This document shows positions 343 through 734 of a DNA stretch of 22,652 nt, one piece after another. Made by a program: the position numbers and the translations under genes. This DNA comes from a virus (lineage: Duplodnaviria > Heunggongvirae > Uroviricota > Caudoviricetes), in the IMG/VR virus record IMGVR_UViG_2859827302_000003, one strand, 5' to 3'. The notes beneath the pieces are model-generated. The model had not been told where the DNA came from. It did not search any database and saw nothing but the letters and a program-made list of their open reading frames with translations. Numbering within the stretch: the first letter of the stretch is position 1; every line of letters starts with the position of its first letter.

Positions 343-372
343 TTACCTAAAATAGCCTTTTGATTTCCAATA

Positions 373-413
373 AAAAAACCGCCTCAGTTCTTTCACCAGA
401 ACGGGCGGTTTTT
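373..413. terminator. Bidirectional intrinsic terminator between yebY and the sRNA locus
   Basis: aaaaaaccgcc ... ggcggttttt inverted repeat, A-run on the left and T-run on the right, so it can serve the + strand (yebY) and the - strand (ryeA). Confidence 0.5.
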
Positions 414-487
414 AACATTTCAGCTGATGACCACCACGCTTTTTATTGACCATTTTGCACGCAAACTGGAAAACCTGGCGTCGTCAT

Positions 488-494
488 CTATTCT
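488..494 (+). promoter_or_regulatory. Candidate sigma-S type -10 element (C-TATTCT) for sdsR
   Basis: cTATTCT ends about 7 nt upstream of the inferred SdsR 5' end (gcaaggc at 501); SdsR is known to be RpoS-dependent. Confidence 0.4.
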
Positions 495-500
495 TAAAGG

Positions 501-603
501 GCAAGGCAACTAAGCCTGCATTAATGCCAACTTTTAGCGCACGGCTCTCTCCCAAGAGCCATTTCTCTGGACCGAATACAGGAATCGTATTCGGTCTTTT
601 TTT
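501..603 (+). ncRNA. sdsR: SdsR (RyeB) small RNA
   Basis: About 103 nt matching the remembered SdsR sequence (GCAAGGC...CUGCAUUAAUGCCAACUUUUAGCGCACGGCUCUCUCCCAAGAGCC...), ending in a perfect 10-bp stem gaccgaatac/gtattcggtc plus T-run; lies between yebY and pphA as in E. coli. Confidence 0.75.
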
Positions 604-734
604 AATTGCATTTGAAATCAATTAGTTGCAAATGTCTCCCCGAAATTCCCCGAAATTTACTCGAATTTCTGTATTCCGGTCTTTTTTGGTTATATCACAA
701 CCAAAATACATTTAACAATCCATTTACGTTAAAA

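Follow-up and report, generated by a model that had tools for sequence, protein, structure and literature searches.

Where does the bacterial chromosome end and the phage begin when an integrase gene sits beside a small regulatory RNA, and what becomes of that RNA? A 22,652-nt stretch of DNA (the window; IMG/VR virus record IMGVR_UViG_2859827302_000003, Caudoviricetes) raises this question. Here the stop codon of an integrase gene (int; tca on the window strand, 735-737, - strand) lies 131 bp from position 603, the 3' end of SdsR (RyeB), a small RNA (sRNA) with the antisense partner RyeA (SraC). An earlier note, made from the sequence, had pointed to a tandem repeat and an imperfect second copy of the SdsR terminator end in this interval, and all the features that it listed are present, with small offsets in their coordinates. 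We consider it very probable that positions 578-734 form the left attachment site (attL) of a lambda/HK022-type phage integrated in the sdsR terminator, with P' arm sites, a duplicate of half the attachment (att) core and a promoter for RyeA, and that the element is now dead.

We aligned window positions 343-1289 to 5426 complete E. coli genomes by megablast. All 5426 genomes align, only up to position 604, and 228 of them continue into the integrase; an empty-site query (yebY-sdsR-pphA) is uninterrupted in 5191 of the 5426. Because E. coli homology ends at 604 in every genome, positions 605-734 are phage DNA and not native intergenic sequence. The comparison with the uninterrupted yebY-pphA region, which the earlier note had proposed, thus locates the junction, and the interval 605-734 is not native in island-free strains. 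The features on which the junction rests are the following.

504-603, + strand: SdsR (RyeB) sRNA gene, full length (Rfam RF00111, 115.6 bits, above the gathering score of 38).
463-607, - strand: conserved body of RyeA/SraC, confirming the antisense overlap with SdsR (Rfam RF00101, 176.7 bits).
569-597, + strand: SdsR terminator hairpin with an 11-bp stem, the 7-nt loop AGGAATC and then T7 (terminator scan).
578-604: att core, 27 bp common to attB, attP, attL and attR (ACAGGAATCGTRTTCGGTCTYTTTTTA; four-sequence comparison).
580-586: inferred 7-bp overlap for strand exchange, equal to the terminator loop AGGAATC (narrowed by analogy with lambda Int).
605-734: phage P' arm and int-proximal module, joined directly to the P arm in attP of the free phage genome PP818812 (L004) and of an attP-like contig (L015).

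The four attachment sites that we compared were attB of a K-12-like genome (ccgaatACAGGAATCGTgTTCGGTCTcTTTTTAtctg), attP of PP818812 (gacgaaaACAGGAATCGTaTTCGGTCTtTTTTTAattg), attL of the window (ccgaatACAGGAATCGTaTTCGGTCTtTTTTTAattg) and attR of the intact 48-kb prophage of strain FDAARGOS_943 (gacgaaaACAGGAATCGTgTTCGGTCTcTTTTTAtctg). The 27-bp block of identity between them has two polymorphic positions and, as the earlier note had supposed of the core, overlaps the sdsR 3' end. The distribution of host-type and phage-type bases across the four sequences places the crossover within positions 578-588 (ACAGGAATCGT), bounded by attP/attB differences at 576 and 589, and this stretch includes the whole terminator loop. 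The stem arms CCGAATAC and GTATTCGG are perfectly inverted around the loop, in a geometry that fits core-type sites. Since this geometry resembles lambda-type core sites around a 7-bp overlap, we infer that the arms are the Int core-type sites B and C'. The window contains no further copy of the att core.

In the mechanism that we propose, the Rho-independent terminator hairpin of sdsR would itself be attB, its stem arms would act as inverted core-type Int sites and its loop would act as the overlap for strand exchange. Since attP carries the same 27 bp, integration would rebuild the SdsR terminator from a left half of the host and a right half of the phage. The final ~15 nt of SdsR in the window (589-603) are phage-supplied: at 589 the window shows the phage-type A in place of the G of K-12, and at 598 the phage-type T in place of C. 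The terminator folds at -15.8 kcal/mol (z = -4.7), and the attP core alone shows no terminator fold (z = +0.52). A terminator stem strengthened by integration could be ruled out: the hairpin-only energy is -15.4 kcal/mol in both the window and K-12, and the U-run alone differs (7 uninterrupted U compared to 5 in K-12). Separately, we observed that at position 567, in the segment that links the second hairpin to the terminator, SdsR of the window has T, whereas virtually all copies in E. coli and IMG/VR have C (ccatttcTctgg versus ccatttcCctgg).

To the right of the core lie the components expected of the recombination system, listed here with the integrase gene.

618-630, + strand: site like that of the integration host factor (IHF) (aATCAAttagTTG, matching WATCARNNNNTTR), the equivalent of H', at +35 to +47 from the overlap centre (read from the alignment).
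637-666, + strand: three tandem 10-bp repeats (TCCCCGAAAT, TCCCCGAAAT, TTACTCGAAT), candidate arm sites P'1-P'3, at +54 to +83.
735-1264, - strand: 3' part of a lambda/HK022-type integrase gene, about the C-terminal 176 codons (99% identical to int of the intact prophage locus L002; Pfam assignment on the full-length homologue).

The full-length Int homologue has a tyrosine-recombinase catalytic domain (PF00589, 61.8 bits) and, at residues 4-61, an arm-binding domain (PF09003, Arm-DNA-bind_1; 28.1 bits against a cut-off of 22). The fragment in the window shows the R...HxxR...H...Y motifs (QRRED, FHEVRSL, LLGH, KMYLD), and the part of int that encodes the arm-binding domain is deleted. Over its full length Int is 41.8% identical to HK022 Int, and Xis of the intact prophage is of the lambda type (PF07825, 52 bits). 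A scan of the genome collection with the integrase returned two close relatives.

The tandem repeat is exact over two units, TCCCCGAAAT at 637-646 and again at 647-656, and is followed by a third, degenerate unit, ttactcgaat, at 657-666. Read in the frame ccccgaaatt, as in the earlier note, the two units are indeed there and occupy 638-647 and 648-657, about 2 nt from the 636-655 given. When the 131-bp interval 604-734 was resampled 20,000 times under a first-order Markov model, 0.085% of the resamples contained an exact tandem 10-mer (p ~8.5e-4). We aligned the P' arms of phages whose Int proteins are 74-99% identical, together with more distant ones, and found one layout in all of them: the core, a variable AT-rich spacer with WATCARNNNNTTR, and two or three 10-bp units. 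The WATCARNNNNTTR motif, a predicted IHF site, is kept in place in 9 of 10 distinct family representatives when the alignment is read by eye. Within the tandem units CGAAWTT is invariant, and the flanks vary in concert from phage to phage (CCCCGAAATT, CCTCGAAATT, GTCCGAAAAT, TCTCGAAATT, CACGAAATTA). The motif YCGAAWTT also occurs at -148 in the P arm of every attP and attR examined, with an inverted IHF-like site near -110, and the attP-bearing locus L004 has 6 matches to it where 0.97 are expected. One count weighs against this interpretation: YCGAAWTT is mildly enriched across the whole window, with 9 matches compared to 4.05 expected, a number that 3 of 100 shuffles reach. The repeat is best read as two of three putative arm-type Int binding sites, because of its position at +54 to +83, the concerted variation of its units, the copy at -148 and the arm-binding domain in Int. 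The P' arm would then consist of an IHF-type bend site (618-630) followed by three arm-type Int sites (637-666).

By every sequence criterion tested, the recombination machinery is a lambda/HK022-type Int-Xis-IHF system. Lambda attP extends from about -152 to +82, with P'1-P'3 at about +52 to +82. Shared with lambda and HK022 are a three-domain Int with an arm-binding domain, a lambda-type Xis, the position of int beside the P' arm, an inverted-repeat core around a 7-nt spacer, an IHF-like site between this core and the three tandem arm sites, and a further arm site in the P arm at -148. The two systems differ, however, in the sequences of the core and of the arm sites, with YCGAAWTT here compared to CAGTCACTAT-type sites in lambda, and the target is an sRNA terminator instead of the gal-bio attB. 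In addition, whereas lambda int ends almost at P'3, an extra module of ~68 bp (half-core duplicate and predicted outward promoter) stands here between P'3 and the int stop codon. Beyond the arm, this module, which is shared with related phages, would consist of an ancient half-core duplicate and a promoter that faces the core. The first of its two parts is the second copy of the terminator end.

669-689, + strand: second copy, a duplicate of the right half of the core (C' arm and T-run), ctgtattccggtcttttttgg, overlapping the predicted start of the phage-type RyeA.

The copy lies where the earlier note had placed it; the genuine terminator end (gtattcggtcttttttt) occupies 587-603, and not 581-603. 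A 17-mer match with at most 2 edits arose in 0.045% of the resamples of 604-734 (p ~4.5e-4). In two loci (L066 and L161) the second copy is identical to the core half CGTATTCGGTCTTTTT at 16 of 16 positions, in the family of the window it has a 1-nt insertion, and in other groups it is progressively decayed. Both repeats are found inside the intact attP of the free phage PP818812 and of the attP-like contig, and at a fixed offset in 58 of the 133 distinct attL/attP arms that we collected (for the second copy ~+84 start-to-start, or +74 where one repeat unit is missing). Judged on this comparison of arms, the second copy is a true duplicate of the right half of the core and a constituent of the phage; since it lies inside an intact attP and at a fixed offset in these arms, it is no scar left in this strain by a further integration. 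Its mean pairwise identity is 0.78, compared to 0.51 at third codon positions of int and 0.36 in one adjacent spacer.

A deletion in one contig also concerns these copies. In locus L029, which is the same contig as L138 (IMGVR_UViG_2728369554_000022), exactly the 84 bp between core and second copy are deleted (CGTATTCGGTCTTTTTTGGTTATATC), and with them the IHF-like site and all three arm repeats. This fits recombination or slippage between the direct copies, and the loss thus suggests that the two repeats are recombinogenic.

What the second copy does, if anything, can be weighed against these data. It may be a mere relic, left by an ancient event in which the ancestor of the phage superfamily duplicated or captured the end of the sdsR terminator; it would then have no function of its own and persist because of its location in a promoter-proximal transcribed region. 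The gradient of decay among the groups, from perfect copies to the barely recognisable CCATATTCTTTCT, speaks for this, as does the 84-bp loss, which simple direct repeats would undergo; yet its identity of 0.78 stands against 0.36-0.73 in the adjacent spacers, over Int divergence to 74% and beyond, and we regard a pure relic as possible but somewhat unlikely.

Alternatively, the copy could be an extra core-type (C'-like) Int site next to P'3, serving as an operator on the adjacent promoter or as an aid to the intasome. It includes GTATTC(C)GG, the sequence of the inferred C'/B' site, it is kept beside the arm sites across diverged phages and matches the core half perfectly in L066 and L161, and its identity exceeds the neutral-like value of 0.51. 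Nevertheless, the spacing to its inferred inverted partner does not suit a crossover site, the 1-nt insertion disrupts the half-site in the window family, and to our knowledge no such site exists in lambda or HK022 attP, which leaves such a role improbable.

We think it most improbable that the copy is a back-up intrinsic terminator that would stop SdsR read-through before it runs antisense into int. The + strand does read CGAAT-ttctgt-ATTC followed by a T6 run, and read-through of the sdsR terminator, continuing into pphA, is documented in K-12 (PMC6610125). However, the element has no significant terminator fold (-6 kcal/mol, z = -1.14; 27 of 200 shuffles fold at least as well), its minimum-energy structure puts no hairpin directly ahead of the T-run, and several related groups keep the element yet lose the T-run. 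Finally, although the copy genuinely duplicates the right half of the core, the locus is a hot spot with many different arms and one contig with two cores shows that tandem occupancy does occur, the earlier note's view of both repeats as scars of repeated integration or att duplication in this strain is scarcely tenable, as a free phage and an attP-like contig carry both of them inside an uninterrupted attP, as both recur at the same offset in lysogens of many strains, and as the window has no other copy of the core.

The other part of the module, which we interpret as a phage-borne promoter for RyeA, has two elements.

689-697, - strand: predicted extended -10 (TGaTATAAC), directed at the core and sdsR; the start is predicted at about 681-683 (read from the sequence).
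713-718, - strand: -35-like block (TTGTTA; conserved part TGTTAAA), 18 nt upstream of the -10 (alignment).

On the - strand, TTGTTA, 18 nt and TGaTATAAC thus follow one another, and the predicted start falls inside the second copy. Across diverged arms the TTATATCACA block (689-697 and adjacent bases) has an identity of 0.91 and the TTTAACA block (713-718 and adjacent bases) one of 0.97; with the neutral-like benchmark at 0.51, these are the best-conserved blocks of the arm outside the core. Integration would carry the native ryeA promoter away to the opposite end of the prophage, and in the lysogen the phage promoter would most likely drive a RyeA/SraC that is ~40 nt longer and starts inside the second copy. 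The suspicion that the ryeA promoter is affected was therefore well placed, as both the promoter and the 5' part of RyeA are replaced in the window.

In K-12, the -10 of ryeA is TATGGT, defined via a mutagenesis primer, and start sites of E. coli ryeA have been reported (PMC6610125); with the start from that work and the coordinates of the K-12-like locus, K-12 RyeA starts ~39 nt past the 3' end of SdsR. Compared to E. coli, Shigella and Salmonella have an SraC that is longer by ~35 nt and peaks earlier, with a potential -10 ~35 bp further upstream (Froehlich et al., PMC3333887). The question of whether RyeA expression is altered has essentially been answered in the literature by the longer and differently timed SraC of Shigella (PMC3333887) and by altered ryeA/ryeB in Salmonella lysogens (PMC7380047). 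The predicted phage promoter is a good though not exact fit to the longer Shigella SraC; our literature search for start-site data on Shigella SraC found nothing usable.

Several observations weigh against the promoter as we read it. A promoter scan over positions 300-1400 found no - strand promoter, under a rule that needs T at the last base of the -10, where the candidate reads TATAAC. The -35 is weak (TTGTTA in the window, ATGTTA in relatives), and the predicted RyeA would be ~40 nt longer than that of K-12, compared to the ~35 nt published from northern blots. In the profile alignment, the K-12 -10 falls on window positions 700-705 (TTTGGT) and not on TATAAC, and we accordingly rejected the K-12 -10 as the positional homologue of the window TATAAC. 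Long-range pairing in RyeA was also discarded: the minimum-energy fold of the predicted 5' region has local hairpins alone, with no pairing between the second copy and the core arm, and a 51-nt piece of this region (690-640, - strand) folds no better than shuffles (z = -0.69). On the family model for RyeA, we noted that the 5' end of the RF00101 consensus (model positions 1-16, AauUAAAAAaAGaCCG) is closer to the phage-type junction AATTAAAAAAAGACCG (window 604-607) than to the K-12 sequence AGATAAAAAGAGACCG, so that the RF00101 seed may be dominated by lysogen-type or Salmonella-type sequences.

Whether the element could still leave this site is answered by its decay, which we traced by mapping the window on the intact form, a ~48-kb prophage that carries ipaH3 (loci L002 and L003). 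The flanks and the insertion sequences (IS) concerned are these.

1-342, + strand: yebY, the host gene left of the locus and upstream of sdsR (open reading frame (ORF); annotated as yebY in the syntenic loci L001 and L002).
1265-2527, + strand: IS600 (IS3 family) inside int (99% identical to IS600 annotated in L002; ORFs of 100 aa and 272 aa).
2528-2958, - strand: middle part of int, with the 5' 124 nt and xis missing (matches L002 20919-21345).
2959-3726, - strand: IS1 copy that truncates int (by self-BLAST 100% identical, inverted, to 20846-21613; matches IS1A annotated in L003).
20846-21613, + strand: IS1 copy with a 248-bp deletion at its site (window 20845 = L003 26823; window 21614 = L003 27072).
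21614-21716, - strand: K-12-type sdsR-pphA spacer with the orphaned native ryeA promoter (-10 TATGGT), in an arrangement identical to that of L001.

The window has no match to L002 21346-23098. The 248 bp deleted at the right-hand IS1 (L003 26824-27071) comprised the sites of the P arm, the core of attR and the initial 25 nt of flanking host DNA. Of the phage genes, most are either lost or interspersed with three copies of an IS of 2.4 kb. The island is immobile and locked in place, since IS600 splits int, IS1 truncates it, xis is lost, and the P arm and attR are deleted. With the integration system dead, the junction survives as the SdsR terminator and the RyeA 5' region alone.

The right end of the island retains a tail-fibre fragment, ipaH (18743-20458) and the sRNA CssrB (20587-20769). 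CssrB ("chromosome-encoded Shigella sRNA B", RF02799, 151.6 bits), with ipaH on one side and the lost attR on the other, also occurs in the intact prophage (L003 ~26566-26748). Much of the island consists of IS elements, among them two copies of IS1 and one copy plus a fragment of IS600. The ~2.4-kb IS, at 5360-7798, 12173-14611 and 15163-16785, is present as two full copies and one partial, inverted copy with 99.9% identity, and its ORFs of 133, 115 and 512 aa have an IS66-like organisation.

At the right-hand flank, the orphaned ryeA -10 TATGGT is the reverse complement of 21632-21637. The promoter abuts the right end of IS1 (21613) and faces that end ~12 nt past its start, so its transcripts should enter IS1 and run antisense to the ORFs there. 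As pphA (21717-22376) no longer follows sdsR but stands on the other side of the island, the SdsR-to-pphA read-through coupling of K-12 (PMC6610125) presumably cannot operate here.

This native spacer may have a phage history of its own. A profile made from the arms of one subgroup (29 arms, without the core) served to search 249 kb. The profile detects the arm and int of the window at E = 1e-17 and the K-12 sdsR-pphA spacer (L001 2806-2870, corresponding to window 21630-21694) with an nhmmer E of 0.002, on the correct strand and in the syntenic position; the next unrelated match has E = 3.9. By blastn, the spacer matches locus L128 at E = 2.5e-4. Among the arms of that subgroup, the corresponding stretch codes for the C-terminus of the integrase, ...LLGHKNLTMTKKYLDARGAEYVMV followed by the stop, and translation of the K-12 spacer gives H-I-I-L-T-R-M-L-K, a frameshift and L-D-S-D-S-R-V-C-V-M-V. 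The K-12 ryeA -10 (TATGGT) coincides with the V-M-V codons of this fossil. These similarities suggest that the E. coli sdsR-pphA spacer is likely, though not proven, to be the remnant of an older integration by the same phage superfamily. The notion of more than one integration may thus have been right in substance, at another place (21630-21694) and for another reason than the earlier note had given.

A further step is tempting, and we offer it tentatively, at somewhat less than even chances. RyeA/SraC, the antisense "antitoxin" of SdsR, may never have been truly host-promoted: the phages of the superfamily would all bring, where the int 3' end meets the P' arm, a core-facing extended -10 beside the half-core duplicate, the K-12 ryeA promoter would be a fossil of one of them, and SdsR/RyeA would be a host sRNA paired with a repeatedly exchanged antisense regulator from phages.

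The site itself is a hot spot. Scanning IMG/VR with the att core gave at least 120 viral contigs that share it, with many different right flanks. Most attL arms contain, in this order, three CGAAWTT-type repeats, an ATATYCNGKY element, a promoter-like block and the int 3' end. We dropped single-linkage k-mer clustering for counting arm families, as most arms merged into one cluster, a merging that reflects a genuinely shared architecture. One contig (L093, IMGVR_UViG_2667528172_000001) has two cores, at 556-575 and 8867-8886, 8.3 kb apart, the second with the P' arm of another family, which suggests that a small element and a further prophage occupy the hot spot in tandem. The free phage PP818812 is labelled "Actinobacillus phage vB_Apl-pPE4", which would make Actinobacillus pleuropneumoniae its host. 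This label looks doubtful: over the int-attP end the record is 96.8% identical to the window prophage (98.3% for Int), and the core of its attP is the sdsR terminator of E. coli.

The target is known from Salmonella enterica. The last 23 bp of ryeB serve as the att site of PhiW104, whose lysogeny alters both ryeA and ryeB: the 5' part of ryeA is replaced, ryeA is lowered and ryeB is raised (Balbontin et al. 2008, J Bacteriol 190:4075, as summarised in PMC7380047). sdsR/ryeB is also among the phage-targeted sRNAs in comparative studies (PMC3603311), and "RyeB" is already a site label in island nomenclature (PMC10111431). PhiW104 uses the same target as the window island, with att in the last ~23 bp of ryeB/sdsR and internal to ryeA (PMC7380047, PMC3333887), and replaces the ryeA 5' part as the island does, with changed ryeA/ryeB expression in the PhiW104 case (PMC7380047). 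The 27-bp core described here includes the last SdsR bases named for PhiW104, and foreign DNA begins right after it, at 605. The window phage differs in coming from another host lineage (Shigella/E. coli), in being a different phage and in carrying ipaH3; it is a Shigella/E. coli ipaH phage at a known hot spot.

The same logic is familiar from integrators at tRNA and tmRNA 3' ends (P4, P22 and many genomic islands), where the element also carries the 3' end of the RNA gene and regenerates a functional gene, with the crossover in or near a hairpin loop that has symmetric arms. In contrast to these, the target here is an Hfq-dependent regulatory sRNA with a cis-antisense partner, so integration swaps the promoter of that partner too. 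Compared to the Shigella ipaH islands, which are decayed, IS-ridden lambdoid remnants, there is nothing unusual about this one, with ipaH at the right end beside CssrB and with IS1, IS600 and an IS66-type element; what the window reveals is the att site that the island used.

In conclusion, the finding is ordinary in mechanism and well explained. Three points may be new: a duplicate of half the core is conserved next to the arm sites, a predicted promoter that faces the core is conserved as well, and the ryeA promoter of E. coli may be a fossil. For a Shigella ipaH island, the boundary between bacterium and phage is placed at base resolution, the SdsR 3' end at this site is phage-derived, and excision is no longer possible. 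Lysogeny rewires the cis-antisense pair: the native ryeA promoter and the SdsR-to-pphA coupling are moved off, and a phage promoter, as predicted here, would take over, which offers a concrete sequence explanation for the longer and earlier-peaking SraC of Shigella. If the antisense regulator is indeed exchanged repeatedly, this would explain why SraC differs in promoter, length and timing between E. coli, Shigella and Salmonella while SdsR is uniform. Should the fossil interpretation hold, the variability of enterobacterial SraC would be a by-product of serial phage integration.

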